This document shows positions 1 to 64,000 of a DNA stretch of 64,000 nt, in pieces. The stretch's first letter is position 1. The number at the start of each line of letters is the position of its first letter. Source of the stretch: a virus; the UHGV virus genome UHGV-1366976, one strand, 5' to 3'. The notes under the pieces are model-generated. The model made no database searches and was not told where the DNA came from. It saw only the letters and a list, made by a program, of their open reading frames with translations. A program made the translations under genes and the position numbers.

Positions 1-2
1 CA

Positions 3-166
3 TTCTATGATGATCCAGTAAGAAATAAAGTTCCACATCCTGATGGAGGTGTTACAGAGTCTTATAGATATGACATTCTTTATATTGGTTCTACAGAAGA
101 GCCTAATATCCAAATTGCTAAGATTAAAGGTGAAGAGGAACATAGAGGATATCAGTTTGGGTTAAT
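3..166 (+). CDS. 5' exon (partial, continues upstream of window) of an intron-interrupted gene of unknown function; translation ...FYDDPVRNKVPHPDGGVTESYRYDILYIGSTEEPNIQIAKIKGEEEHRGYQFGLI
   Basis: Frame 3 is open from the window start to a TAA at 186-188. The proposed 5' splice site follows the T at 166, which lies 47 nt upstream of the P element AATTGCTGGAA. Introns 2 and 3 in this window show the same 47-48 nt spacing. Confidence 0.35.
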
Positions 167-986
167 ACAGCAAAGAAAGGTTGCCTAAGCTCAAACTTTA
201 ATAAACACTGTGAATTGCTGGAAACTCTTTAGAGCTTCAAGTACTAATTAATAAAAAATAAAATATGGAAATTTGGAAAGACATTAAAGATTTTGAAGGT
301 TATTATCAGATTTCAAATCTTGGAAATGTTAAATCTCTAGATAGAGAAATGATTGTAAATGGTGGTATTAGAAGATATTATTCAAAACCTATCACCCAAT
401 CAATAGAAAAAGATGGTTATTTAACTGTGACATTATGGAAAAATTCTAAGAGTAAATCTTTTAGGGTACATAGATTAGTTGCAGAAGCTTTTATAGAAAA
501 TCCAAATAATTATGAAATAGTAAATCATTTGGATGGAAATAAACAAAATAACACTGTTGGAAATTTAGAATGGTGTACTATTAAGGAAAACACTAATCAT
601 GCTTTTAGAACAGGTTTAAGAAAATCTGGTGAAAAACATAGATGGTCTAAATTAACAGAATTTCAAGTAAAACAAATACCTAATTTATTAAATCAAGGTT
701 TTTCTCAAAAATATATTTCTAAATTATATGGAGTTTCTTACTCTTGTATTAAGAATATATGTCAAGGAAGAAAATGGAGATTTTTAATTAGTGACAATCT
801 TGAAGATTAGACAATCAGCAGCTTAGCTCTAGAAATAGAGAAAGTTCAGAGGCCATCCCTTTAGGGAGTACCCATAAGCATGGGGAAGTGCAGTGCTTCT
901 TTATATTAGAAGATATAAAGAATGAAGATATGGTCCAACCTCTATAGAGATATAGAGAACACTTTAAAAGTGTTATACAAGATTAG
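167..986 (+). mobile_element. Group I intron carrying an HNH homing-endonuclease ORF. P is at about 214-226 (AATTGCTGGAAAC), Q at about 814-823 (AATCAGCAGC), R at about 843-854 (GTTCAGAGGCCA) and S at about 926-937 (AAGATATGGTCC).
   Basis: The canonical P, Q, R and S core elements occur in the correct order, with the ORF sitting between P and Q. Intron 2 (17608-17880) and intron 3 (55334-56382, minus) have nearly identical cores. The boundaries are approximate, especially the 3' splice site. Confidence 0.6.
265..810 (+). CDS. HNH homing endonuclease (intron-encoded)
   Basis: The N-terminus WKDIKDFEGYYQISNLGNVKS is a NUMOD4-like motif typical of I-HmuI-type HNH_3 endonucleases. HRLVAEAF...NHLDGNKQNN forms the HNH core, and the C-terminus (KLTEFQVKQI...GVSYSCIKNICQG) resembles a sigma-70 region-4-like HTH. 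The ORF lies inside the core elements of a group I intron. Confidence 0.8.
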   Translation: MEIWKDIKDFEGYYQISNLGNVKSLDREMIVNGGIRRYYSKPITQSIEKDGYLTVTLWKNSKSKSFRVHRLVAEAFIENPNNYEIVNHLDGNKQNNTVGNLEWCTIKENTNHAFRTGLRKSGEKHRWSKLTEFQVKQIPNLLNQGFSQKYISKLYGVSYSCIKNICQGRKWRFLISDNLED

Positions 987-4527: not shown

Positions 4528-7500
4528 TAAATACATTAACAACTTTGTATTCATCATTAAAATCATATTATAATAATCTCATTGTTTATGGCCATTCCTA
4601 TGAAAATAGGAAACTTATCATCTTAAAGGGTGTTTTAGATGTTATTAAAGAGTTAAGATGTTATTCTTATACTTCTAATCAAGATATCACAGATATTTAT
4701 TCTATAGTAGAATATATAGTTAATTCTTCAGATATTTTTAAAAAGGAATATGCTCCTACCAATAATGCAACTAATTATTTTAAAGATGTTCCTTCACAAT
4801 TTTATCCTAAAGGAGAATATAATATTAAAGAATCATTAGTAACAGTAATTGCTAATACTACAGCTTTTAAATATGATGGAGAAGGAACAGTATTTCCTAA
4901 TGAAATAAATCTTCAAGCTGTAGCTTATAATTTTACTCCTTCCACTAATTCAGCTAGAAAATGGGAATATTCTAATGGTGGTACTTATAGAATTATTGAA
5001 GGAGCAACATCTGATAATTTAACTGTAACTCCAGATTCAGAGTTATGGAATAATACTGATATGATTTCATTAAGATATACTGTTAATGATATCTATACTA
5101 ACCAACTAACAATCTTTAAAGTTAGAGATGGTTATGGAGCATATAGTGTAGAAATAACTTCTTCTAATGGTAATATCTTTCAAAACAATAGAATAGATAC
5201 TGAATTATCAACACATGTATATATAGCAGGTTCAGATATTACTAACACTATTCCAGCTGAAGAATTTAGTTGGAAAAGAATTAGTGATGATCCTACATCA
5301 GATACTCAATGGAACAATAAAAATCTTAAAGGTAAAACTATAAGGATTACCAACAAAGATGTTAAAAAGAAAGCTACATTTGTTTGTACTGTTGTTATAG
5401 ATGGTGCTAAGATTATGAATGGTCAAATTACCATTCTAGATCAACTAGATACAACATATATAAGTTCAACATTAGAATCTAATAAATCTTTAGTTCAATT
5501 ATATAATACAGAAGATGGAAAATTAAATCCTGATTGGACTGTTTATCCTTATCTAGTATTAACTCCAGGAGTCTGGTCTGGAGATCCAGAAGATAATCTT
5601 CTTATATCTCAAAAAGAAAATATTAAAGATTTTAAATGGACTAAGAATGGATTATCTATAGAAAATAGTCCTACTCATGTTATAGATGAAAATAAAGTTC
5701 TTACTATCAAAACAAATGAGTTAACTCTTAATCCTAATATTAGATATGGATTTTATGGTGTATATGTAGATCCATTAACTAAAGCTGAGACACCTTTCTA
5801 TTCATCTTTATCATTTGTTAGGGTAGAGACTTCTAGAGTTACTATCCAAGCAGTAATGTTATATCCATTAGGAAGTATTTTTAAAAATGATGATGTAGAT
5901 TTCTTAAAAGCTCATTGTGATTTATGGAGAGGTTCTTATATAGATAATACTGATGTTGAATATAAATGGTTTATAGAAAAACCTGGAGTATTTGATCCTA
6001 AATTTACATCTTCTACTGCAAAAGTTGGAGATAATGTATTACATGTAGATAATACTACAGGAATGGTTAGAGATTCTAATATTAGAATCTTAGGATATGA
6101 TTATGTAGTAGCTACAGTAAATTCTTCTACAACCTTAGTATTAACAGAAACATTAAAACAAGATGTTCCTAGTGGTACTAGAATATATAATCCTTATTAT
6201 AATAGTAGTGGAGGAATAGGATGGGCTTATATTGATGAAGTAAATAATTTTGGAGTTACTGGATATACTACTAATGAAATTATTATTCCAGAATCTACTG
6301 TATTAAATTTTGCAACATTTAAATGTGTTATTACAGATTTAGATTCAAAATCTATTACTTATAATCAATCTGTATATGCCACAGCTTCATTCTTAGACCA
6401 ACAAGATCCTTTACAAATAGCTTTTAATACTCCTGAAGGAACTATCTTTAAAAATAAAACAGGAACTATTACAATAGAAGCTGAAGTATGGAGAAATGGT
6501 GAAGAACTTGATGAAGATGGATCAACTTATATTTATGATTGGATTCAATATGATAAAGATGGACAAGTTATTTCTACTTTCTCTAGAATAAATAAAACTA
6601 TTTTAATAACACCAGATGATGTTGATTCTAAATCTAATTTTGAAGTTAGATTGAAAAACTCTTTAGGAGAGGTAATTGCTAAAGGAAGAATCACCATTGT
6701 AGATATTATTGATGGTAGTAATAGTGTTATTATATATACTAGAGATATGCTTGAACCTATCCAACCTAGAGGAGCTAGTCCAGCAGGATGGAATGTTAAT
6801 CCTAACACATTTGATGAATGGTATGGATTATTATGGCAAGCATTTAATATAAATAATCTAACTGGAGAGCCTTCAGGAGAATGGACTCCTCCATTATTAG
6901 TTGATGAATATACTACTAACATGTTCTTTAGATTCTTATGGAATGAAGGATCAGGAGATTATAGTAAGTATTTACAATATGGAACTAATGCTAATAATAA
7001 AAGGGAGATATTACCTACTCCATTTAATATGCCAGATGTAGTATGGAAATGTATTTCTACTGCTGATGGTGATACAGATGGAGGTTTTTATGTTCCAAAT
7101 ATACCTATTTATCATCATCTTACTTATAGATATTCTATATGGGCAAAACAAATGCAAAGAGATGGTACTATCTTGTTTGGATGTGATCCTAATACTTCAT
7201 TATATTCAGGGCAAACTTCTGATGGTTTATTCTGGGGAGGTGATTTACCAGAATTAAATAAATGGTATTTATTAGTAGGTTATATTAATAGTTCAGAGGA
7301 CAATACAGGAGAAAAATTTGATGCTGGTATATATGATCCTAAAACAGGCAGAAAAGCTTCTGATACAATTAAATTTAGAACTTTTAAATTTAAAAACACT
7401 GATGAAGTTCAAATGTTTAGAGCTTATCAAGGCAGTGCTTTAGGAATAGGTACTGAAGTACATTTTTGGGGTCAGAGATTAGATCTATGCAATAATAGAG

Positions 7501-17454: not shown

Positions 17455-17488
17455 TTTGAATATTTCTCATCTAAACTTAGTATCTTTG
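17455..17488 (+). promoter_or_regulatory. Bacteroidetes-type sigma-A promoter: -33 TTTG (17455-17458), 22-nt spacer, -7 TATCTTTG (17481-17488)
   Basis: It matches the Bacteroides TTTG/TAnnTTTG promoter consensus exactly. Three more copies with identical -7 octamers lie at 21709-21740, 31487-31518 and on the minus strand at 56213-56244. Confidence 0.6.
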
Positions 17489-17549: not shown

Positions 17550-17607
17550 ATGGCAAGAAGTTTAGATGATGCTGCTTCTAAGGGAGTAGCTGGTGCAGGT
17601 CTTGGAT
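17550..17607 (+). CDS. exon 1 of an intron-split gene for a small glycine-zipper membrane protein (MARSLDDAASKGVAGAGLG...)
   Basis: The ATG at 17550 lies 62 nt downstream of the promoter -7 box. The unspliced reading frame hits TAG at 17616. An in-phase splice after T17607 to 17881 restores a continuous Gly/Ala/Leu-rich frame. Confidence 0.4.
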
Positions 17608-17880
17608 TGACATACTAGTCCCATATAATAGAAATATTATATGCAAATCCCTTGAATTGCTGGAAAGTCCTAATATTTAGGATAATCAGCAGCCAAGCTT
17701 TATATTAATATAAAGAAGGTTCAGAGACTATCTAGAAATAGAGTACATCACAAGCTAATGGTGATGGAAGTAGGGGACATCTGAAAAGATGATGATATAG
17801 TCCAAACTACATGTATATATAAAGATGTAGAAGTTCATTAGAGAACTGTATAGAGCTTGCAACTCTATATGAATAAATTG
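17608..17880 (+). mobile_element. ORF-less group I intron of about 273 nt. P AATTGCTGGAAAG is at 17655-17667, Q AATCAGCAGCC at about 17685-17695, R GTTCAGAGACTA at about 17721-17732 and S GATATAGTCC at about 17794-17803.
   Basis: All four conserved core elements are present in canonical order, and the P-box lies 47 nt from the proposed 5' splice site, as in the other two introns. The frames of the flanking exons are compatible. No ORF lies inside. Confidence 0.55.
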
Positions 17881-18407
17881 TAGGTATAGCAGGTACAGCT
17901 CTAGGTTTGTGGGCATTAGTAAAAAATGGTGGTAATCTTTTAGGTGGTATTGGTGGTGGAGAAACTATTATAGCTAATAACACTTTAGGATATGGTGCTG
18001 CTGGTGTAAGTGGATTTGGATATACTCCTTCTGAAGTATACATGTCTGCTAAACAATGTGAAGATAATGTTGCATTGACTAGAGCAATCTATGATACTAG
18101 AATCAAAGATTTGCAAGAGAAAACTGGTATTTATAATTATTTCAATGACAAGTTCTGTCAAGTTGAAAAACAGGTTGCTGCTTTAGAGCAAGCTAAACCT
18201 TATGAGCAAAAGATTTTGGAATTGCAGTTCCAATTGGCTCAAAACCATTCAGATAGATATACTGATAAGAAAACTTGTGGTGTAATCTATGGAGTAAATG
18301 TATTGCCTGAGACTCCAGTAGTAACAGGTTATGAAGGAGCTAATGGTCCTTGGGGATCATGTGGTTGCCCTAGAGTAGCTGCTTCTTCTAGTACTCCTGC
18401 TGCATAA
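17881..18407 (+). CDS. exon 2 of the glycine-zipper membrane protein. The spliced product is about 194 aa: an N-terminal GxxxG-type hydrophobic helix and a C-terminal Cys-containing domain.
   Basis: The ORF-track entry 17907-18407 begins at a TTG, but the frame is open back to 17883 (…IVGIAGTALGLWALVKNGGNLLGGIGGGE…). The C-terminal part has 5 Cys, including a CGCP motif. A terminator follows. Confidence 0.5.
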
Positions 18408-21102: not shown

Positions 21103-21725
21103 ATATAAAATGGAAATTATACTTAGGAGTATTTATAGTACTCCTAGGTTTAATATGTACTATTAGTTTTCAAGCTAAATATATTAAAAAACAGAAAGCT
21201 AATATAGAAAGATTATCTCATAATCAAGAAGCTCTCACTACAGAAATAATTAATTTCAAAACTAAAGATTCTCTTAATGCTGCTACTATTAAATCTTTAA
21301 TAGTAACTACTAATGAATTTAAACATATTAATGATGATTCTAAAAAACAAATAGAGGCTCTAAATATTAAATATAAGAGACTTTTAAAAGTTAATCAAAC
21401 AATTACTCAAGAGAATCAAAATCTCCTCTTAAATAAGGTAATAGACACCTTATATCTTAAAGATACAATCATAAAAACAATAAAAGCAACATATAGATCT
21501 CCATATCTAGATTTAGATGTTATAGATTTAGGAAAACAATATAAAATAGAATATCAATCTAGAGATACTATAGATCAGATATTAGAAAATATTCCTAAGA
21601 AATTCTTATTTATAAAATATGGAACAAAGGGGTTTAAAACAACATATGTAAATAGAAATCCTAATGCTAAAATTATAGGAGCAACAGATTATGTATTTAA
21701 AAATAAAGTTTGGAAAAAGCTATAA
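21099..21725 (+). CDS. type II membrane protein with a periplasmic coiled coil (i-spanin-like or lysis-associated, 208 aa)
   Basis: The N-terminus is a signal-anchor (KWKLYLGVFIVLLGLICTISF), followed by a long heptad-rich region. Confidence 0.4.
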   Translation: MNIKWKLYLGVFIVLLGLICTISFQAKYIKKQKANIERLSHNQEALTTEIINFKTKDSLNAATIKSLIVTTNEFKHINDDSKKQIEALNIKYKRLLKVNQTITQENQNLLLNKVIDTLYLKDTIIKTIKATYRSPYLDLDVIDLGKQYKIEYQSRDTIDQILENIPKKFLFIKYGTKGFKTTYVNRNPNAKIIGATDYVFKNKVWKKL

Positions 21726-21740
21726 AATGTTGTATCTTTG
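21709..21740 (+). promoter_or_regulatory. Bacteroidetes-type promoter: TTTG (21709-21712), 20-nt spacer, TATCTTTG (21733-21740)
   Basis: An exact consensus match lies 24 nt upstream of the ATG at 21764. Confidence 0.6.
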
Positions 21741-21763: not shown

Positions 21764-22447
21764 ATGAAAACAAGAGAACTAATATTTAGAGTATTACAGT
21801 TCTTATCTATTAATTCAGATGATTCTATACAAGATTTTTCTGAAGAATATATTTATAATATTTTAATAGATAAAAGAGCTTTTCTTCTAAAGCAACACTA
21901 CAAGGATGCTAGAAAATCTGTACCTAGGTCTTGTTATCAAACATTAAATGTTCCTTTAGAAAAAATTAGAGTTGTTCCTGATCTTAAATATTCAGAAGTA
22001 TTATTAAGATCAGTAGATAAAATACCTGAAATGGTAGATTTTGCACAAGAAGCTGGAGTAGCTACTACTATTATAATGAGTACAGATTACACAGCAATTC
22101 CTTTTAATTTAGTTACATTTGAAAGATTGCCTACTGTTGGATCTAATAGATGGACAAAAGATTTATTATATGTAGCATTAGGAAATGAAAGATTATATTT
22201 AAAATCTTTTAATTCATCTTTTACTAATCTAACTAAAGTTTTAATATTTGGAGTTTTTTCTGATCCTTCTCAAGTGTATTATGCTAATGGAAATGAAGGA
22301 GATTACTATGAAGAAGAATTTCCTATTAATAATTCTATGGTAGATCCTATTATTAAATTAACATTAGAAGAACTTACTAGAATACAAAGACCTAAAGATG
22401 TTATTAATGATGGAGAAGGAATTGAAGATCAAAGATCTAGAGTATAA
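21764..22447 (+). CDS. hypothetical protein (227 aa)
   Basis: ORF downstream of a consensus promoter. It is the first gene of the operon that runs into the giant ORFs. Confidence 0.55.
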   Translation: MKTRELIFRVLQFLSINSDDSIQDFSEEYIYNILIDKRAFLLKQHYKDARKSVPRSCYQTLNVPLEKIRVVPDLKYSEVLLRSVDKIPEMVDFAQEAGVATTIIMSTDYTAIPFNLVTFERLPTVGSNRWTKDLLYVALGNERLYLKSFNSSFTNLTKVLIFGVFSDPSQVYYANGNEGDYYEEEFPINNSMVDPIIKLTLEELTRIQRPKDVINDGEGIEDQRSRV

Positions 22448-31486: not shown

Positions 31487-31518
31487 TTTGGAATAACTTT
31501 AATAATTTAGTATCTTTG
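31487..31518 (+). promoter_or_regulatory. Bacteroidetes-type promoter: TTTG (31487-31490), 20-nt spacer, TATCTTTG (31511-31518)
   Basis: An exact consensus lies in the 102-nt gap upstream of the 598-aa gene. Confidence 0.6.
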
Positions 31519-52460: not shown

Positions 52461-54488
52461 TTAATGTTGCCATACTGTTGTTATCTCAGGTTCTGCAATT
52501 ACAGGAACTACATCTATAAATACTCTACCTGCTTTTTCCATACATTCTTTTAAAGCTTTTGCACATTTATCTGCTATATCTTTGGGAGTTTCTAAAAGAT
52601 ATTCATCATGGACAAAGTTACTTATTTTAACTTTATCAAATAAATTTTCTTTTAAAATCCAATCAAAAAACCAAACTCCAGCTAGTTTAGACATATCTGA
52701 AGCACTACCCTGGCAAGGAAAGTTTAATGCTCTTCTTTCTAAATCTCCTCTAAGATTAAAAAATCTTTTACAAGTAGGCTTATAATATGTCAAAAAATCT
52801 TCTGTTTGATGGAATTTATGTTGTTTGTAATTCTCCCACCATTGTTTATCAATAGTTCTAGAAAGTCTTTCATATTCATCAAATATTTGATAATATGATC
52901 TTCTTCCAGTAACTTTGTTAAAATAGACATATCCATTTTTGACAACAATAGGTTTGATATAGTCAAAATATTCTTTTAATTTAGGAAAAGCTTTCATATA
53001 GGCATCATAGACTTCATCTCCTTCTTCTTTAGATAATCCTAAATTCTTAGCAATAGTATCACCAACACCACCAAATAAAATTGCAAATTTAGCACCTTTA
53101 GCTTTACTTCTAAGATCAGGTCTTTCATGTTTTACTTCTTCTTCTGGAATATCTTTTAATTCCTTAGGAAAACATAATTTTGCAGTAAAACTATGACCAT
53201 CTCTTTTTCTAGTAGTATCATTATAAAAATCTATAAGTGCAGGTTCTTTAGATAATTGAGTGTACATTCTATCTTCTTGTTGACTGTAATCACAATCTAC
53301 TAAGATAGTGTTCTCAAATTGATTAGTAAAACATCCTCTAGTTATTTTATCTGAAGGAATATTTTGAAGATTGATACTATTATCATCATCTTTATTATCT
53401 CCAGAACCACAAGAAGTTCTACCAGTATTCATAATTTGCCAAAATGTAGCATGAATTCTTCCTGTTTTAGGATTAATAGCATCTAAGAAGTTTTGTCCAT
53501 ATGTAGTTACCAATTTCTGTGCTTTCTTATAATCAATATACATTTGTATAAGAGGAGACACATGAACTTGTTTAACTATATGCTTAGCTTCTATAGAATC
53601 TTTCATTTTTCCTGTTTTCTTATCTCTGACTTTAGTATCTACACCTAGTTCTTTAAAGATAGGAATAATTTGTTTAGAAGAACTCCAATTTAAACTACAT
53701 CTTTTAGCTGCACTAAAAAGATCTAATTGTTTATTAACATATTTATCACCAAATCTTTCAAATACCCATTTGTTCAGAGCAAATTCCATATCTGATAGCT
53801 TCTTGGAATCATCTTCCATTTTAGCTAGCCATTTTTCTTTATTAAGATAAATACCACAATATTCAATATATGCTAATACCTTAACAAATTTATTGTCTAA
53901 TTTAACAGCACCCCATAAACCATCTTCTTTAATTTTAACCATTTGAGAAGTCATTACAGGAATCAGATATTTAACATCATTGGCACCATATTCAATAACT
54001 TTATCAGTAAGACCTACTCTATTAATAGTTCCTCTAATAGATTTATTTAATAAGACACCACAATATTTAAGAACTAGAACATCTAAAGATTTTCTAACAT
54101 AATTTGGTAATTTAACATCATCAAATCCACAATATAATACACCTTCAGCTAAATATGTGTCAAATATATTTTCTAGAATGATATTATGCTTATAGAAAAA
54201 TTGAAGATCAAATTTTGCATTTTGTAGTACCCAAACTACATCTTTTCTTAATAATAATGGTTTTAATTTTTCTAATATATTAGGAGAATACTCAATCACA
54301 AATTGCTGATCAAAATCTCCAAATTGAATAGATAGTAATTCACAAGAATGTGGATCTAGTCCACTAGTTTCAGTATCTAAGGCAATAAATTTATGATTTT
54401 TAAAATAAGATATAATATCCTGAACTTCTATTTCCTTCCAAACACTACTTCCAACAACTCTTTTCTGCTCAGAACAAAAATGTATCAT
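52461..54488 (-). CDS. family A DNA polymerase with an N-terminal 3'-5' exonuclease domain (T7-like, 675 aa)
   Basis: The exo I motif is ALDTETSGLDP. Pol motif A is VDCDYSQQEDRM, motif B is RSKAKGAKFAILFGG and motif C is FVHDEYLLE. Confidence 0.9.
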   Translation of the reverse strand: MIHFCSEQKRVVGSSVWKEIEVQDIISYFKNHKFIALDTETSGLDPHSCELLSIQFGDFDQQFVIEYSPNILEKLKPLLLRKDVVWVLQNAKFDLQFFYKHNIILENIFDTYLAEGVLYCGFDDVKLPNYVRKSLDVLVLKYCGVLLNKSIRGTINRVGLTDKVIEYGANDVKYLIPVMTSQMVKIKEDGLWGAVKLDNKFVKVLAYIEYCGIYLNKEKWLAKMEDDSKKLSDMEFALNKWVFERFGDKYVNKQLDLFSAAKRCSLNWSSSKQIIPIFKELGVDTKVRDKKTGKMKDSIEAKHIVKQVHVSPLIQMYIDYKKAQKLVTTYGQNFLDAINPKTGRIHATFWQIMNTGRTSCGSGDNKDDDNSINLQNIPSDKITRGCFTNQFENTILVDCDYSQQEDRMYTQLSKEPALIDFYNDTTRKRDGHSFTAKLCFPKELKDIPEEEVKHERPDLRSKAKGAKFAILFGGVGDTIAKNLGLSKEEGDEVYDAYMKAFPKLKEYFDYIKPIVVKNGYVYFNKVTGRRSYYQIFDEYERLSRTIDKQWWENYKQHKFHQTEDFLTYYKPTCKRFFNLRGDLERRALNFPCQGSASDMSKLAGVWFFDWILKENLFDKVKISNFVHDEYLLETPKDIADKCAKALKECMEKAGRVFIDVVPVIAEPEITTVWQH

Positions 54489-54768: not shown

Positions 54769-55333
54769 TTAACTGCATTTAGAAAATGAACAGGATTTGC
54801 ATAGGAGGCATCCATTATTGAAGACTAATTTATCTCCACACATAGGACAATTTTCTCCACTTTTAGCATTATTATCAACATACTTAGCAATTGTTCTTGC
54901 TAATACTTTATGAAAAGCTGTTAACTCACCTTTACTTTTCTTTAATTGATCAATTAAAAAGTTAAAACCAACATCACTTCTAATAGATATGGATAGAATT
55001 CTAGTAATCATTTCTAGTTGATCATCCATCACATCTACAAAGTTTTCTATAATAACTTTTCCTTCTTGATCTTGTAGTTGATAATATCCTTTTTTAATTT
55101 TAACAATTTTACCAATATCTGGTAATTTAATATCTTCTGGTGTAGGACATACAAATATTTCATATGGTTTACCTTCATAGAAGCCTAATGCACAAAGATA
55201 ATTCTTTCCTTGAACCTTCATATTATGAATATGAGAAAGTAGCTCAGAAGGTCTCTTTGGTGCCTTTCTTGAAGGATCTTTAATCTTATTATCTGTAGAT
55301 ACTAGAACACCACTTCTACTACCATCTCTATAG
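54769..55333 (-). CDS. nrdJ: ribonucleotide reductase (class II-type), 3' exon, encoding ...YRDGSRSGVLVSTDN... and a C-terminal Cys cluster (CPMCGDK...CLLCKSC)
   Basis: The minus-strand frame is open upstream of the annotated Met (55221) back to about 55337, and reads CYRDGSRSGVLVSTDNKIKDPSRK. This is the conserved segment that follows GLKG(V/I)TV in adenosylcobalamin-type RNRs. The class II assignment is inferred from this motif and the absence of a small-subunit gene. Confidence 0.7.
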
Positions 55334-55384
55334 CATTTCTACCTTTACTTTCATAAAGGATTGGACTATACCATAATCCTATTT

Positions 55385-56179
55385 CTAGGATTCCTCCATT
55401 ATAGTCTCTGAACATCTTGTAATCCATTTATATTTATAGCATTCTAAAGGACAGTCTCCTATAAATTTTAAAAATTCTATTAAAGCTTTATTACTTAAAT
55501 AATATGCTCCTCCATTATTATACTTATAATAGTTACAATTTCCAAATTTTTTAAACTGAGACAAAATAAATTCATTATAATGTTTACAAGAGATTTGTCC
55601 TCTATGAGTCTTAGACTTAGATTGTCTAGAGCTATTTCCATCTCCAATATACCACCATAATAACATTATCTTGTCTAAAATAATATTAGGAAGAATTTTT
55701 CTATTTTGTTTTTGCTGAATCATTATTTCTTTTGGATAGAATAAATTATATAGTTCTAGAAACTCTCTTCTTGTTTCAGTTTGAAAACTATAGCATTCAG
55801 AATTTTTTCTATAGAAAATCTTTGAACATTTTATATTATTTTTCTCAAAAATAGAAATTAAATATTCATGTACTTCTTTATGTTTATCTGTATAAGAAAA
55901 GTAGGGGTTTCTTAATTTTTTACTTATTCTAAGACTTCCATCTCCTAAAATTAAACCAATAAGTAAAGATCTAAATTCTGTACTAAATTTAATTTCTGGT
56001 TTCTCAACAAAGCTTTCTTTAACAGATCTTACTTTTATAGAATTTTTAATCAAATGATATCTTAAAGTTCCTAAATTTATATTATACTTTATAGAAAGTT
56101 TACTCATACTTTCTCCATCTAAATACTCTTTAATGATATCATTCCAAAATGAATTAGAATTTTGCTGCTGATTTTCCAT
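55385..56179 (-). CDS. LAGLIDADG homing endonuclease (intron-encoded, 264 aa)
   Basis: Two LAGLIDADG motifs are present, LLIGLILGDGSL and LWWYIGDGNS, plus an N-terminal HTH-like region. Confidence 0.85.
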   Translation of the reverse strand: MENQQQNSNSFWNDIIKEYLDGESMSKLSIKYNINLGTLRYHLIKNSIKVRSVKESFVEKPEIKFSTEFRSLLIGLILGDGSLRISKKLRNPYFSYTDKHKEVHEYLISIFEKNNIKCSKIFYRKNSECYSFQTETRREFLELYNLFYPKEIMIQQKQNRKILPNIILDKIMLLWWYIGDGNSSRQSKSKTHRGQISCKHYNEFILSQFKKFGNCNYYKYNNGGAYYLSNKALIEFLKFIGDCPLECYKYKWITRCSETIMEES

Positions 56180-56212
56180 TTCTAAAAATTAAAAGGTTTT
56201 ACAATAATTATA

Positions 56213-56244
56213 CAAAGATAGTATAAAAATTATAAAATTCCAAA
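56213..56244 (-). promoter_or_regulatory. Bacteroidetes-type promoter inside the intron that drives the LAGLIDADG gene: minus-strand TTTG (56244-56241), 20-nt spacer, TATCTTTG (56220-56213)
   Basis: The minus-strand sequence reads ATTTGGAATTTTATAATTTTTATACTATCTTTGTATAATT, ending 33 nt upstream of the endonuclease ATG. The octamer is the same as at the three + strand promoters. Confidence 0.55.
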
Positions 56245-56382
56245 TAATTTTTTCATCTTAACATTTTTCTAACATTCACACTTATCCTCTCAGATTATGT
56301 TGTAGTAGTTAAGCTTTAGGAGGTTCCAGCAATTTAGAAGGTTATTCAATATACATTACTGTATAAGGCTGCCTATTTGTTA

Positions 56383-58361
56383 ACAGTAACTCCTTTAAGT
56401 CCCATTTTATAAGCATTAAGATAAATTTGTTTTACAACATCTTTACTTACATCTGAGGCTAAATTAATAGTTGTGCTAATTGAACTAGTAGTATATTTTT
56501 GGATAATAGCTTGAATCTCTAATCTTGTTTGCCAAGGAATATCTGCTGCTTCATTATTATAATAAGGAGAAGATTTAAAGAGAGTATTAGTCATACTCTT
56601 AGATAGTTCATTAAACTTCTTTCCAGTTGTTATTTCACAGAATTTCTGGAATCCTTTATGAGCAACTGTAAATACTTTAAATTTCTCTTTAGTATTAGGA
56701 TCTATAAAATCATATTTTTCATCAAAAGCATTTACTTTAACTCTTCTATCATACAATGTTTTAAATACTGGTTCTATACCACTAGTAGTTTGAGTTAGTA
56801 ATGATCCTGATCCAACTGGAGCAACAGTACTTAATGAAACATTTCTTCTTCCTAGTTCTTTCATTCTGGAAACTAGTTTAGGATAATTATTTATTAAAAA
56901 TTCATACCATTGATTACTAGGTTTATCTTCAGGATATTCTAAATTATAATCATAGTCTAAGAAAGTTCCTCTAAGATAAGCTAAATCTATACTAGCTTCT
57001 AATTCAGCTTTAAACTTAGTTTCCATAATAGATTCTACTAGATAATGAGAATCTTTAAATGATAGATTCATTGCAGCAATAGTATCTCCTAAAGCTGTGA
57101 ATCCACATCCAATTCTTCTACCTTTTCTAGCTGCATCAAGAACTCTTTTCCAAAGTTCTATTTCACTTTTAGCATCTGAATGATTGATTATATTTTCAAT
57201 ATTTTTACATTCCAAATCAATAATATCATCCAGAAAGATTACATGTTCATATGCTATTTTTCTAAATAGTTCATAATCAAATGAGGCTTCACTAGTAAAA
57301 GGATTTTTTACAAATGATAAAAGATTAATATGAGATAATCTACATGAATCAGCATCACCTAATGGCTGTTCTCCACATGGATTAGTTGTAACAGCTTTTA
57401 ATCTAGGATATACAGAAGCAGGATCATAATTAATAATATTATCCCATAATAGTATTCCAGGCTCAGCTGTTTTCCAAGCACAATCAATAATTAAATCTAA
57501 CAATTCATTTGCTTTTACCTTTTTAAAATAAGATTTTCCTGCATAATATAACTTATTATATTCAAAATCTTTAGAATTCCAATTAATAAATTCTCCTAAT
57601 CTTGAATTAATAGGCCATTTTAGTAACCAATCTTCATTTTTTTGAGCAGCTGTTACTAAATTTCTACATAATTTCACAGAAATATTAGCTCCTGTAACTT
57701 TAGTTAAATCTTGTTTTATTGTAACAAATTCAGATATATCTGGATGAATATCTGACATACATAACATTAATGCTCCTCTTCTTCCATTTTGACCTATAGT
57801 TTTAACATCTGTAGAATATAATTCCATAAAACTAGGAGCTCCTGTACTTGTTTTAGAAGCATTATTTACCATAGCTCCATTAGGTCTTAAATGATCAAGA
57901 TGTGTTCCAACACCACCCCTTCTCATAAATAAATAAGCCATCTCTTTGCCTTTATCCATAATGCTTTCCATTTTGTCTTTTGGTCCTTCAATACCAAAAC
58001 AATTAGCTAGAGAAACATTATTAGCTTTACCTAGAGATGCCATAATAGATCCTCCTGGTACAATATATTTAAAATTTTTAAATAATTGAAACCATTTATC
58101 TCTGATTTGATAATCATTAGACTCACATAGATCTCTTACATAATTTCTACCTAGATCAGAAAGTTTATCTATATTTATTTTTTTATTTACTAATTCTTTT
58201 TGATACTTTCTTTCTATAAGAGCAATATTATAAGCTAACCTCTGATGCATATTATCAGGTGTTTTTTCATCTTCACCTGCATATTTAGATAAAAATACTT
58301 TAGCTGCTAATTCATCTCCTTCAAAATATTTCACACTACACTCTTCAGCTGTTTTCTTCAT
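56383..58361 (-). CDS. nrdJ: ribonucleotide reductase catalytic subunit, 5' exon (659 codons)
   Basis: The active-site motif is NPCGEQPL. The N-terminus ...KVFLSKYAGEDEKTP is typical of RNRs. The exon ends with the conserved YLNAYKMGLKGVTV. Confidence 0.85.
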
Positions 58362-61707: not shown

Positions 61708-63513
61708 TTAATCCAGTGTTTTTAAAGTTTTAGTCAAATCTTCAATAATTTCATTAGCTTCTTTAATCAATTCAGAAAGTCCAGTAATGTCTTGACATTC
61801 TTGTACAAACATTAAAAATTGTTGTTTACATAATTCTACTTGTGCAAAACTTTCACTTTTAAGAGCTAATAATAAATCCTCATAATTATTCTTTACATCT
61901 TCTTTAAACTCTTCCCAACCTAAGTCACCAAAATAATATTTAATGCATTCAGAAAGTTGGGTAAAATCTGTTCTTAACCATTCAGGACAGAGAATATTTG
62001 TTCTGTCAGATTTAAAATTACTATAGTAGTGAGACATACCTACTCTCTTACCTATATCATTAAAATCTGTTTTAGTAGAAAAAGTTTTATAGAATTCACT
62101 AATTCCTTTAGTAATTAAATAGCTTCTTAAAGTAAATAAAGGACTAAAATAGCCTGTTGGAAATATATTCCCTTTTACTTTAAAATCATATCTAGTAAAG
62201 GCATTCTCTCCTAAATACAAGAAATTCTCAGCAATAAAAGGTGTAATATAATCCACTTTTCCTGTTAAAGTATAAATTTGTTGAGCCATTTTATAACAAT
62301 GAGGATGGATTAGTATACCATCTATAAAGTACACTTTCCAATCTGAAGTATATTTACTTGTAGTTATATATCCTAAAGGAGAACAATTATACACTCCATT
62401 CAATAACTGTTTCTTTTGATAATATCTACCTCTAGCAAATAGAATATTATCACTATTATAATAGCCTTCAGTAGATTCTTTATCTAGATCACTTTCAAGT
62501 TTGGTTTTAGAAGGAACTATTAAAACTGGAATCTTTTTATCTTCCTTCTTAGTATTAAATTTGTTTCCTTCTTTATACCTTTCAGATTCTCTCTCCCAAT
62601 ATCTCTGATAAGCAACATCATCTTCATAATCATCACCATAACTTCCATAGTTATAATAATCATAACCATAAGCATTGTGATTATGACCAGAATAAGTGGA
62701 TACATAAGGTTTCTTTTGAAGACATTCACTCCTATCATAGACAGTTTTACTTACAAGTTTTCCATTTTCAAATTTATATAAAGTATTAGGTTCTACAGGA
62801 GCTATTCTTTCTTGATCATCTTTAGAATTATCTATAAATGATAAAGATTCTTCTAAAGAAGAAAAATACCAATAATCCTCATCTATATTATACAAGAACA
62901 AAGGTCTTTCTTCATCTGTAGTTGTTGAAGTACTATAAGCTTTAGATTTTCCTCTAAAAATATATACTACATCAACTCCTCTAGAAATCTTTTCTCTAAT
63001 ATCATAGATAACTATAGCTGCTGCACCAATATATTCAGTTAGGATTTTAAATCCCTCTTTTTTAATTAGTTTAGCTAGAATTTTAGAATCAGTTTCACCT
63101 TTAACTTCTTTGATACCATATTTTTCAGCTAATTCTTCATGATTCTGGAGTGTACCATTATGAATCATTACAAAATCTTCTGTTAAAACATTTTCTTGTT
63201 TTTTTTGTTCTTCTGTTAAAGACTCATTTAATAATACTATGGGTTGAGCATTAGCTTCTGTATGAGCACCTACAGTAGCTTTTCTACAATGTCCTAAAAT
63301 AACATTGTTTTCTTTAAATACAGAATCATTTTTATAAGATAAAACTAAATCTCTATAAAGTTTTTTCTTTTCTACTCCATAAAGAACTCTTCCTAGTAAA
63401 TACCTTCCACAAGAATCACCACCTCTAGAATCATTAAAAAGTCCTAATACATTAAACTTATCCCAACTAAATCTTTTATTATCTTTTCCAATATAACCAA
63501 AAAGTCCACACAT
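61708..63513 (-). CDS. fusion protein (601 aa): an N-terminal class II (Ntn) glutamine amidotransferase domain plus a ~400-aa C-terminal domain of unknown function containing a Tyr/Asp-rich low-complexity tract
   Basis: There is a motif-by-motif match to GlmS/PurF-type Gn-AT II domains: MCGLFGYIG (nucleophile Cys2), SRGGDSCG (RG-DS-G), GHCRKATVGAHTEANAQP (R-AT-G...NAxP), VMIHNGTLQNHEEL (HNGxIxN) and GETDSKILAKLI (ETD[ST]E). No PP-loop SGGxDS is present, so this is not a QueC or AsnB-type synthetase. The low-complexity tract reads YGYDYYNYGSYGDDYEDD. Confidence 0.8.
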   Translation of the reverse strand: MCGLFGYIGKDNKRFSWDKFNVLGLFNDSRGGDSCGRYLLGRVLYGVEKKKLYRDLVLSYKNDSVFKENNVILGHCRKATVGAHTEANAQPIVLLNESLTEEQKKQENVLTEDFVMIHNGTLQNHEELAEKYGIKEVKGETDSKILAKLIKKEGFKILTEYIGAAAIVIYDIREKISRGVDVVYIFRGKSKAYSTSTTTDEERPLFLYNIDEDYWYFSSLEESLSFIDNSKDDQERIAPVEPNTLYKFENGKLVSKTVYDRSECLQKKPYVSTYSGHNHNAYGYDYYNYGSYGDDYEDDVAYQRYWERESERYKEGNKFNTKKEDKKIPVLIVPSKTKLESDLDKESTEGYYNSDNILFARGRYYQKKQLLNGVYNCSPLGYITTSKYTSDWKVYFIDGILIHPHCYKMAQQIYTLTGKVDYITPFIAENFLYLGENAFTRYDFKVKGNIFPTGYFSPLFTLRSYLITKGISEFYKTFSTKTDFNDIGKRVGMSHYYSNFKSDRTNILCPEWLRTDFTQLSECIKYYFGDLGWEEFKEDVKNNYEDLLLALKSESFAQVELCKQQFLMFVQECQDITGLSELIKEANEIIEDLTKTLKTLD

Positions 63514-63530
63514 AATATTATTTTAAATAA

Positions 63531-64000
63531 TTAAACCATAGGAATATTAAATGTCTCTACAAGCTGTTTAGCTACTTCTACATTTCCTCCCATAGCTGCT
63601 AAGACTTCATCTTTTAATACATCTATATCAATAGAATCTTCATCGTCATTTAAATATTTATTTACTTCTTCAATAGCTTTAAGAGTATTATTAAAAGCCC
63701 ATCTTAGTAGATTATCATCTTTTAAGAAATATCCACTTAATGTTCTGGCTTCTACTCCATATCTACAATGTCTAAAAGACCCAGCTGATCCATAAACTCC
63801 TCTTCTCTCATTCTTAGGCTCTATTAATACAGAAGGAACTCCAACAAATAGATCAAAGAATTTTACTATAATAATATTTAATGGAGCTACAGGATCTTTA
63901 TATCCTATATGAATGTGCATACCCACAGTCCTCAATGTTCCTGGAAATTCTGCTGGTTTAGGATTAACTTCTCCATCTTTCCAAGCATTATAATCTTCAG
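63531..64000 (-). CDS. second Amidoligase_2-like protein; its N-terminus lies beyond the window edge (at least 156 aa seen)
   Basis: The minus-strand frame is open from 64000 (...EDYNAWKDGEVNPKPAEFPGTLRTVGMHIHIGYKD...). The annotated M is a TTG. It carries HIHIG and GVEARTLSGYF motifs that parallel SLHVHVG and IEFRIHT in the 467-aa paralog. Confidence 0.45.
   Translation of the reverse strand, partial: EDYNAWKDGEVNPKPAEFPGTLRTVGMHIHIGYKDPVAPLNIIIVKFFDLFVGVPSVLIEPKNERRGVYGSAGSFRHCRYGVEARTLSGYFLKDDNLLRWAFNNTLKAIEEVNKYLNDDEDSIDIDVLKDEVLAAMGGNVEVAKQLVETFNIPMV

Follow-up and report, generated by a model that had tools for sequence, protein, structure and literature searches.

A 64,000-nucleotide stretch of the viral genome UHGV-1366976 (hereafter the window) contains a ribonucleotide reductase (RNR) gene that is interrupted, on the minus strand, by an insert of 1049 nucleotides (55334..56382). 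Comparison with related sequences makes us highly confident that the insert is a mobile group I intron, carrying a LAGLIDADG endonuclease gene in P6a and, separately, a cassette with a promoter-like motif, and that the gene it occupies encodes a class II-like RNR. The intron is delimited by its exact insertion relative to four intron-less genomes (L001-L004), by its predicted fold, and by a sibling at the same site in contig L107. An RNR gene split by a group I intron was the original prediction, and it is upheld by the intron-less alleles, by covariation in four copies, and by the sibling, which lacks the endonuclease open reading frame (ORF) and passes the Rfam threshold.

The interrupted gene and the intron fold

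Three minus-strand ORFs lie in order at the locus: 56373..58361 (662 amino acids), 55385..56179 (264 amino acids) and 54769..55221 (150 amino acids). The first ends with ...GLKGVTVNK and a stop, and the frame of the last is open 5' of its methionine, where it reads KC-YRDGSRSGVLV, the tyrosine lying 37 codons before the Met. Joining 56383 (..ACTGT) to 55333 (CTATAG..) removes 1049 nucleotides and gives 2544 nucleotides, or 847 codons, in frame. Exon 1 (56383..58361, minus strand) contributes codons 1-660 and the GU of codon 661; exon 2 (54769..55333, minus strand; 187 codons) contributes the third base of codon 661, then YRDGSRSG... and the stop. The coordinates, counts, ORF lengths, open 37-codon stretch and 847-residue join proposed earlier were all correct when re-checked. 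In terms of annotation, the three ORFs at 54769..58361 become one RNR gene of 847 amino acids and one intron-borne endonuclease gene.

The insertion is polymorphic, present in some genomes and absent from others, and its boundary is exact. Searched at the protein level, the joined sequence recovers uninterrupted 847-residue proteins (P0001 and P0002) with 98-99% amino acid identity and 100% coverage, and the corresponding genes of L001-L004 lack the intron, their DNA GGAGTAACTGTCTATAGAGATGG being exactly window exon 1 plus exon 2. The intron sits between ...ACUGU and CUAUAG..., after the second base of the Val codon that precedes the tyrosine in the conserved ...G(V/I)TVYRDGS... motif; the last base of exon 1 is U and that of the intron is G. 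The intron begins with T where exon 2 begins with C, and it ends with G where exon 1 ends with T; the intron and exon ends therefore share no base, and the junction cannot be shifted.

The joined protein matches the RNR barrel domain Ribonuc_red_lgC (PF02867) in Pfam at 2e-80, and exon 1 carries the match. Its nearest solved structure is the B12-dependent class II enzyme NrdJ of T. maritima (1xje, 6e-44), whereas the best class I chain scores 1e-19. The alignment with 1xje crosses the splice junction, GVTVYRDGSRS (kgvtvyrdgsrs) facing GITVYRDGSLQ, with RGITVYRDGSLQ on the 1xje side, so that the comparison of the spliced protein with NrdJ which the original prediction had called for supports the join. 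By its barrel domain and its closest solved relative, the host gene is assigned as a class II-like (NrdJ-like) RNR.

The insert is predicted to be a group I intron with helices P1 to P10, a P3/P7 pseudoknot and a terminal G. We number the intron such that position i equals 56383 minus the window coordinate, and all elements are on the minus strand. P1 (56369..56386) pairs exon CUGU (56386..56383) with the guide GCAG (intron 11-14, 56372..56369), placing a U-1·G11 wobble at the 5' splice site that is kept in 4/4 copies, and its loop includes an in-frame stop, UAG. The adjoining guide AUAG (intron 7-10, 56373..56376) forms P10 with exon-2 CUAU (55333..55330), with 15/16 cells paired across the copies; the continuous guide AUAG-GCAG aligns both exon ends through P10 and P1. 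P2 is the hairpin UAUACA-GUAA-UGUAUA (intron 18-33, 56350..56365), in which 5/6 pairs show compensatory change and the GUAA loop is invariant. The 5' strand of P3, CCUUC (intron 42-46, 56337..56341), pairs with GGAGG (P3', 55393..55397), and the P element, the P4 5' strand UUGCUGG (intron 51-57, 56326..56332), pairs with UCAGCAG (P4', the Q element; intron 212-218), both invariant in all copies. The 5' strand of P5 (intron 62-64) and helices P5a, P5b and P5c (intron 70-126), which include a GAGA tetraloop, occupy 56257..56321 and were placed with RNAfold and covariation.

The remaining strands fall in two blocks. Within 56151..56177 lie P5' (GGA, intron 206-208), J5/4, the Q element, and the 5' strands of P6 (CA, intron 219-220) and P6a (UAAUUC, intron 227-232). 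Within 55375..55425 lie P6a' (55420..55425), P6' (55413..55414), J6/7, the R element as the 5' strand of P7 (GACUAU, 55401..55406), P3', and P8 (55375..55392). These are followed by the S element, P7' (AUAGUC, 55364..55369), by the P9 hairpin CCUUUAU-GAAA-GUAAAGG (55342..55359; three pairs compensatory), and by the terminal (omega) G at 55334. The P, Q, R and S elements predicted within the 1049 nucleotides are thus all present.

Pairing was counted over four distinct copies at the same RNR site (window, L036, L093 and L107) and 14 helices, among them the P3/P7 pseudoknot and P10. The proposed structure has 71 pairs with 99.3% of cells standard-paired, against 34-46% when partners are slid by 1-3 columns, and compensatory change is seen in 19/71 pairs, against 0-3 in the slid controls. 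The P1 exon and guide strands, for example, are CUGU/GCAG in the window and L107 and CCGU/GCGG in L036 and L093, the second pair changing from U-A to C-G; P3 is CCUUC/GGAGG in the window and CUUUC/GGAAG in L036 and L093, an assignment with which the Rfam alignment of L107 agrees; and P6 is CA/UG in the window and L107 and CG/CG in L036 and L093, with A-U replaced by G-C at the second pair. P2, P5a (5/6 pairs) and P9 covary at most positions with their GNRA loops kept, and a U·G pair of P5c becomes A-U. Unconstrained folding with RNAfold, the ORF body being replaced by a tetraloop, recovers P1, P2, P4, P5, P5a-c, P6a, P7, P8 and P9.

The diverged copies L036 and L093 interrupt distant RNRs at the ...ITVYRDGSR site, again between V and Y, and were found with the signature TCAGAGACTA...TGGTATAGTCC, which also retrieved two identical copies, L044 and L100. 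The crAss-like contig L107 encodes a 73-74% identical RNR, and its same-site intron is ORF-less, 266 nucleotides long, and about 93% identical to the window copy over the first 131 positions. L101-L106 were retrieved with a signature taken from the 5' portion of the intron; in these contigs an intron in a different gene has no ORF in P4-P6 and has UUGCUGG/UCAGCAG as P4. As these share the P3-P6 half alone, they were used to place P4 and P5 and left out of the pair counts.

Two other assignments were rejected. A P3 formed by CCUCC (intron 60-64), with 70-75/121-126 as P4, is broken in L036; the latter pairing is P5a, given that L101-L106, L107 and the Rfam alignment all place P4' at UCAGCAG; and ACAGUAAU, considered as the internal guide, is the P2 hairpin and would set an A opposite the splice-site U.

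The L107 copy (4952..5234) scores 63.7 bits (E 8.9e-16) against the Rfam model RF00028 (Intron_gpI, gathering score 50), and the alignment assigns the helices in the same way as above. A second intron in the window, described below, scores 88.2 bits and has P, Q, R and S elements near-identical to the RNR intron's. As a separate observation, the core signature TCAGAGACTA-N15-45-TGGTATAGTCC, 21 bases in all, occurs in 89 viral contigs (L012-L100), where about 1 is estimated by chance; a P3'/P8 hairpin fills the gap in nearly all 89, making the signature a cheap probe for such phage introns.

The endonuclease gene and intron mobility

The 264-residue ORF (intron 204-998; 55385..56179, minus strand) appears from its sequence to encode a two-motif, monomeric LAGLIDADG endonuclease, as originally predicted. 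It matches Pfam LAGLIDADG_2 (PF03161) with 45.7 bits (8.9e-12, cut-off 25) and PHROG 11023 at 5.8e-15 over residues 64-253, and there is a weak match to the structure 6x1j in the PDB. Both motifs, LLIGLILGDG (residues 72-81) and LLWWYIGDG (173-181), have their acidic residues, D80 and D180, intact.

The ORF is looped out of P6a, and the ribozyme core codes for both of its ends. Its AUG abuts P5'/P4', such that the G of the AUG and codons 2-6 constitute P5', J5/4 and P4'; overall, codons 1-10, AUGGAAAAUCAGCAGCAAAAUUCUAAUUCAUU, comprise P5', J5/4, the Q element, P6 and P6a, and this sequence is also present in L107. The last 15 codons and the stop, ...KWITRCSETIMEES, comprise P6a', P6', J6/7, the R element, P3' and half of P8. 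The overlap of the R element with the 3' end of the ORF, which had been noted before, is borne out by the position of the P7 5' strand within those 15 codons, and it extends to both ends of the ORF, since the Q element and P5' lie within the first six codons. The start must be the AUG at 56179, because an in-frame UAA lies four codons upstream and residues 10-24, which are outside the core, are conserved as protein among three endonucleases. There is precedent for endonuclease ORFs extending into the core (PMC3984707, Fig. 2b). As the ORF ends are ribozyme core, translation and folding are expected to be mutually exclusive on the same RNA molecule.

Relative to the L107 intron, the window copy has two additions: a cassette of about 58 nucleotides between P5a and P5' (intron ~132-189), and about 720 nucleotides in the P6a loop. 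Together the alleles form a natural series for the colonisation of ribozymes by homing endonuclease genes in phages of gut Bacteroidota, from the intron-less allele through the ORF-less 266-nucleotide intron to the 1049-nucleotide form with promoter cassette and ORF, with a copy bearing an in-frame stop in its endonuclease ORF as a further member. That copy is in L036 (1113..2192, minus strand), where codon 210 of a homologous endonuclease is an in-frame TGA, beyond which the frame stays open as far as the conserved ...KWITRRSETIMEES end. The TGA reflects either a decaying gene or recoding, judging from the sequence; for some crAss-like phages, TGA recoding is described in PMC7886860.

The distribution of the intron points to recent movement. 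The window, L005, L044 and L100 copies are identical (0/1049 differences), while the flanking exons of L005 differ from those of the window at 137/1979 (exon 1) and 43/565 (exon 2) positions and those of L044 at 25/1979 and 40/565; an identical intron in four contigs whose exons are up to 7% apart indicates recent spread. The nearest genome, L001, has only 20/1979 differences in exon 1 and is without the intron. Over a longer range, the L036 and L093 introns retain 68% and 72% nucleotide identity to the window copy in host RNRs with 32% and 39% protein identity. Both patterns fit transfer between genomes at a conserved target, as by a homing endonuclease. At exon position -6 there is a T in 4/4 copies of the 1049-nucleotide intron, an A in 4/4 intron-less alleles, and a C in L107, a difference that may represent a short co-conversion tract or a target-site variant.

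Expression of the endonuclease and alternative explanations

A promoter-like motif, TTTGGAA-N17-TATCTTTG (that is, TTTG-N20-TATCTTTG), lies within the cassette at intron 139-170 (56213..56244, minus strand), its last base 33 nucleotides before the ATG at 56179, and is missing with the cassette from the ORF-less L107. It matches the consensus of the Bacteroidota sigma-ABfr, TTTG at -33 and TAnnTTTG at -7 (PMC7366714). The exact motif occurs 3 times in the window with 0 expected (100 shuffles), always in the sense orientation and 23-67 nucleotides 5' of an ORF. The two other copies, at 21709..21740 and 31487..31518 (plus strand), are 23 and 67 nucleotides upstream of the ORFs at 21764, which encodes a virion structural protein (PHROG 9863), and 31586, which precedes an ORF of 3598 amino acids; a TTTG-N22-TATCTTTG variant (17455..17488, plus strand) is 63 nucleotides upstream of the ATG at 17551. 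These three plus-strand motifs lie in the block of structural and virion RNA polymerase (RNAP) genes. Motifs ending in TATCTTTG may represent phage promoters of a single temporal class, recognised by the host polymerase with sigma-ABfr. In the diverged introns the -7 box is kept in both L036 and L093 and the -33 TTTG in L093, and a 25% identical endonuclease in a PolA intron of L002 has TTTG-N19-TATATTTG 27 nucleotides upstream. The original prediction of a host-type promoter before the endonuclease holds as regards the motif, its position and its recurrence, and is supported at the level of a sequence motif alone; that it acts as a promoter within the intron we consider somewhat probable.

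If the insert behaves as a mobile group I intron, the RNR gene would be transcribed through it and the intron RNA would adopt the standard core from P1 to P10. An external guanosine would attack after the U of the P1 U·G pair, the released exon 1 would attack after the terminal G, and the ligated mRNA would code for the 847-residue RNR. In a mixed infection the putative endonuclease would cut intron-less RNR alleles between GT and C, and repair would copy the intron in (homing). The cassette promoter would probably yield a shorter transcript without the 5' half of the ribozyme, making the endonuclease only, in the manner of T4 td, nrdB and nrdD. We offer more tentatively, as short of an even chance, the proposal that the endonuclease gene is a two-part addition to a 266-nucleotide ribozyme—a host-type promoter cassette in the P5 loop and an ORF body in the P6a loop—with folding and translation exclusive on each RNA. 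In that case, read-through transcripts would splice to give RNR and internally initiated transcripts, without P1-P5, would give endonuclease only. Such an arrangement would be the convergent equivalent, in Bacteroidota phages, of the timing switch of T4, with the catalytic core itself in place of a separate hairpin.

Several points weigh against this reading of the locus. Splicing, endonuclease activity and promoter activity are all deduced from sequence; P1 involves just four exon base pairs; and the covariation rests on four distinct sequences, from which the structure was itself partly read. An Rfam search of the whole window at the gathering score (50 bits) did not detect the RNR intron, and a permissive run gave 29.2 bits (E 3.8e-5) over 55342..55491, the part with P7, P3', P8, P7' and P9. 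A test with Rfam covariance models had been proposed at the outset, and its result is divided: the window copy falls below threshold, which we attribute to the inability of the model to bridge the ORF body of about 720 nucleotides in P6a and the cassette in P5, while the L107 sibling and the covariation support the fold. The predicted probability that the start codon is unpaired differs modestly, 0.38-0.39 in read-through RNA against 0.50-0.70 in promoter-initiated RNA. Matches to the loose consensus TTTG-N17-23-TAnnTTTG number 7 in the window against 4.3 expected, which is no enrichment, and L036 is without the -33 TTTG.

The last two points also count in favour of an explanation to which we give a smaller but substantial weight, that the intron is real and TTTG...TATCTTTG is not a working promoter, the endonuclease being made from read-through pre-mRNA or excised intron RNA and the conservation of the motif reflecting RNA structure or AT-rich chance. 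Consistent with this, the motif was not found upstream of the endonuclease in the other endonuclease-bearing RNR introns of relatives (L010/L011 and L008), and crAss-like phages are described as encoding their own RNA polymerase with different promoters (PMC7886860). Such an explanation has to accommodate the threefold exact recurrence of a 15-base motif, always in sense and close to an ORF; a -7 box kept in three intron copies only 68-72% identical overall; the similar motif before the distantly related PolA-intron endonuclease; and a cassette that is missing exactly where the ORF is missing. A related candidate, an operator of the I-TevI type recognisable as a likeness of the homing site at the promoter, was rejected: the best match has 13/20 identities, and 103/200 shuffles were as good, which is the chance level.

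Two further alternatives concern splicing itself. The intron could have lost self-splicing, with the ORF and cassette burdening P5 and P6, and need the LAGLIDADG protein as a maturase, or a host factor; this we regard as unlikely. LAGLIDADG proteins do serve as maturases in some organellar introns, and the core is AT-rich (24% G+C) with short helices, including the 4-base-pair P1 and a 3-base-pair P5. The label 'endonuclease maturase' is applied to such crAss-like ORFs in PMC7886860. Yet every core helix is intact and covarying, the ORF-less L107 sibling keeps the same core with no protein gene, and T4 introns with P6a ORFs self-splice (PMC2988022). As regards the structure of the gene there is one real alternative, itself very improbable, namely that splicing is absent and the RNR is assembled from two polypeptides of 662 and 150 amino acids, as with NrdA/mobE of Aeromonas phage Aeh1. 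That precedent of a fragmented RNR assembled from two proteins (PMC3045599), and the in-frame Met of the downstream fragment, are set against a break that falls inside the conserved TVYRDGS, where a first Met 37 codons downstream means that a segment would be lost. The complete covarying core, with exact P1 and P10 pairing to both exon ends, and the retention of a 266-nucleotide element without any endonuclease in L107 also argue against two polypeptides and for a spliced intron.

Genome setting, other introns and known systems

The neighbourhood of the RNR gene encodes a PD-(D/E)XK nuclease, PolA, dUTPase and Thy1; the PolA shares 36-38% identity with its counterparts in cr108_1 and Bacteroides phage DAC15, and the contigs of relatives are about 100 kb. 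Taken together, the gene neighbourhood, PolA identities and contig sizes place the window with the crAss-like (Bacteroidota-infecting) phages. A megablast search of the region against INPHARED phages returned zero DNA-level matches, and the lineage thus appears to be absent from that collection at the DNA level.

The second group I intron in the window is ORF-less (17598..17823, plus strand; Intron_gpI, 88.2 bits, E 4e-23), and shares its P and Q elements with the RNR intron. It was missed in the default gathering run and found with permissive filters only; default Rfam screening therefore misses such introns, both the RNR intron and, with default filters, this one. It appears to split a Gly-rich gene (17551..17907, plus strand) after a short exon 1 (ATG at 17551, MARSLDDAASKGVAGAGLG...), and its P1 (GGAU/AGUCC with a U·G pair) and P10 (GUAU/AUAC) pairings suggest boundaries at 17608..17883.

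Other insertions are found in the RNR genes of relatives. In L008 (2436..5950) the gene is interrupted after about codon 199, with a 303-residue LAGLIDADG_3 ORF; in L010 (2147..5521) and L011 (2042..5416) the interruption is after about codon 333, with a 210-residue LAGLIDADG_2 ORF and a td-like core. Inteins with Intein_splicing and LAGLIDADG_3 domains are present in P0012, P0037 and P0059, RNR forms of 983-1165 amino acids. With inteins and no fewer than three intron sites, the RNR gene is a hotspot.

Introns also occupy neighbouring genes. The window PolA (52461..54488, minus strand) is intact with 675 amino acids, while in L001 (8825..11143), L002 (8822..11755), L005 (9874..12192) and L008-L011 it ends at 630, and the intron that follows belongs to the same P4-P6 family. 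It is ORF-less in L005 and has a 233-residue LAGLIDADG_2 ORF in L002, whose end (...SSETI) runs through the R element UCAGAGACUAU, in the frame that the endonuclease of the RNR intron also uses there. A COOH-NH2-ligase-like gene at the right edge of the window (63500..64000, minus strand) was considered as the site of a third window intron and rejected: the gene runs uninterrupted in the window and in L002-L004, and the insertion, between ...RTVG and (M/V)HIHIGYKD with a LAGLIDADG_3 ORF, is in L001 and L005 only (both 1..862). The window and L001, with RNRs about 99% identical, differ at three intron sites, from which it follows that intron content turns over fast. The introns of L101-L106 (e.g. 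L101 5050..5500; exon ...SSGDIGKGLTAAGAALSTYGNSFEQTIALVTAGE...) have the P3-P6 half in common with the RNR intron and differ in the 3' half, where extra helices of the P7.1/P7.2 type lie between P7 and P3' and an ORF follows P9, a pattern suggestive of intron halves being exchanged as modules.

Group I introns in RNR genes are known from Twort nrdE, SPbeta bnrdE/bnrdF and nrdE/nrdF of the B. cereus group (PMC2248736, PMC3984707). As in these Gram-positive phages and prophages, the RNR large subunit is a recurrent target, with several sites and inteins per gene, and there too the endonuclease ORF sometimes overlaps the core (PMC3984707, Fig. 2b); their RNRs are, however, class Ib, their endonucleases HNH or GIY-YIG and their cores IA2-type, whereas the window combines a class II-like RNR with a LAGLIDADG enzyme. 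In the split nrdA of Aeh1 a large-subunit gene is likewise interrupted by an endonuclease gene, but there is no ribozyme there and the halves are separate proteins, whereas here a complete predicted ribozyme would restore one reading frame (PMC3045599). Among phages closer to the window, the Delta and Zeta groups of crAss-like phages are described as carrying introns and inteins at high density, the introns being identified by LAGLIDADG and other types of endonuclease ORF (Yutin et al. 2021, PMC7886860), with the core genes MCP, PolB, primase and RNAP as intron hosts. Bacteroides-infecting gut 'Jug' phages have introns in nrdD and terL, and their splicing, including that of nrdD, is reported to be confirmed in metatranscriptomes (PMC12880540). 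On these accounts the window shares phage order and host phylum with those introns; we did not find the RNR site, the intron-family structure or an internal promoter in the intron accounts of PMC7886860 and PMC12880540.

A close parallel is offered by the T4 td, nrdB and nrdD introns, whose endonucleases are transcribed from middle or late promoters inside the introns and whose translation on longer transcripts is blocked by RNA structure (PMC2988022). As with td/I-TevI, nrdB/I-TevIII and nrdD/I-TevII, the endonuclease ORF is looped out of P6a, an intron-internal promoter (here a candidate motif) lies 5' of the ORF, and the ORF start region is in RNA structure (here predicted) on read-through transcripts (PMC2988022). 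The differences are that the endonuclease is LAGLIDADG and not GIY-YIG or HNH, that the motif is of the Bacteroidota sigma-ABfr type and not that of a middle or late promoter, that the start codon would be covered by the ribozyme core (P5'/P4') and not by a dedicated hairpin, that P7.1/P7.2 are missing from the RNR intron, and that an operator-like copy of the homing site at the promoter, as for I-TevI, was not found (identities at chance level). An endonuclease with its own promoter in a phage group I intron is not new; it is the classical T4 arrangement, textbook knowledge since T4. What the window and its relatives add is modest: an ORF that overlaps the core at both ends, a series of introns without and with an ORF, the recurring promoter motif, and a type of intron that default Rfam screening misses.

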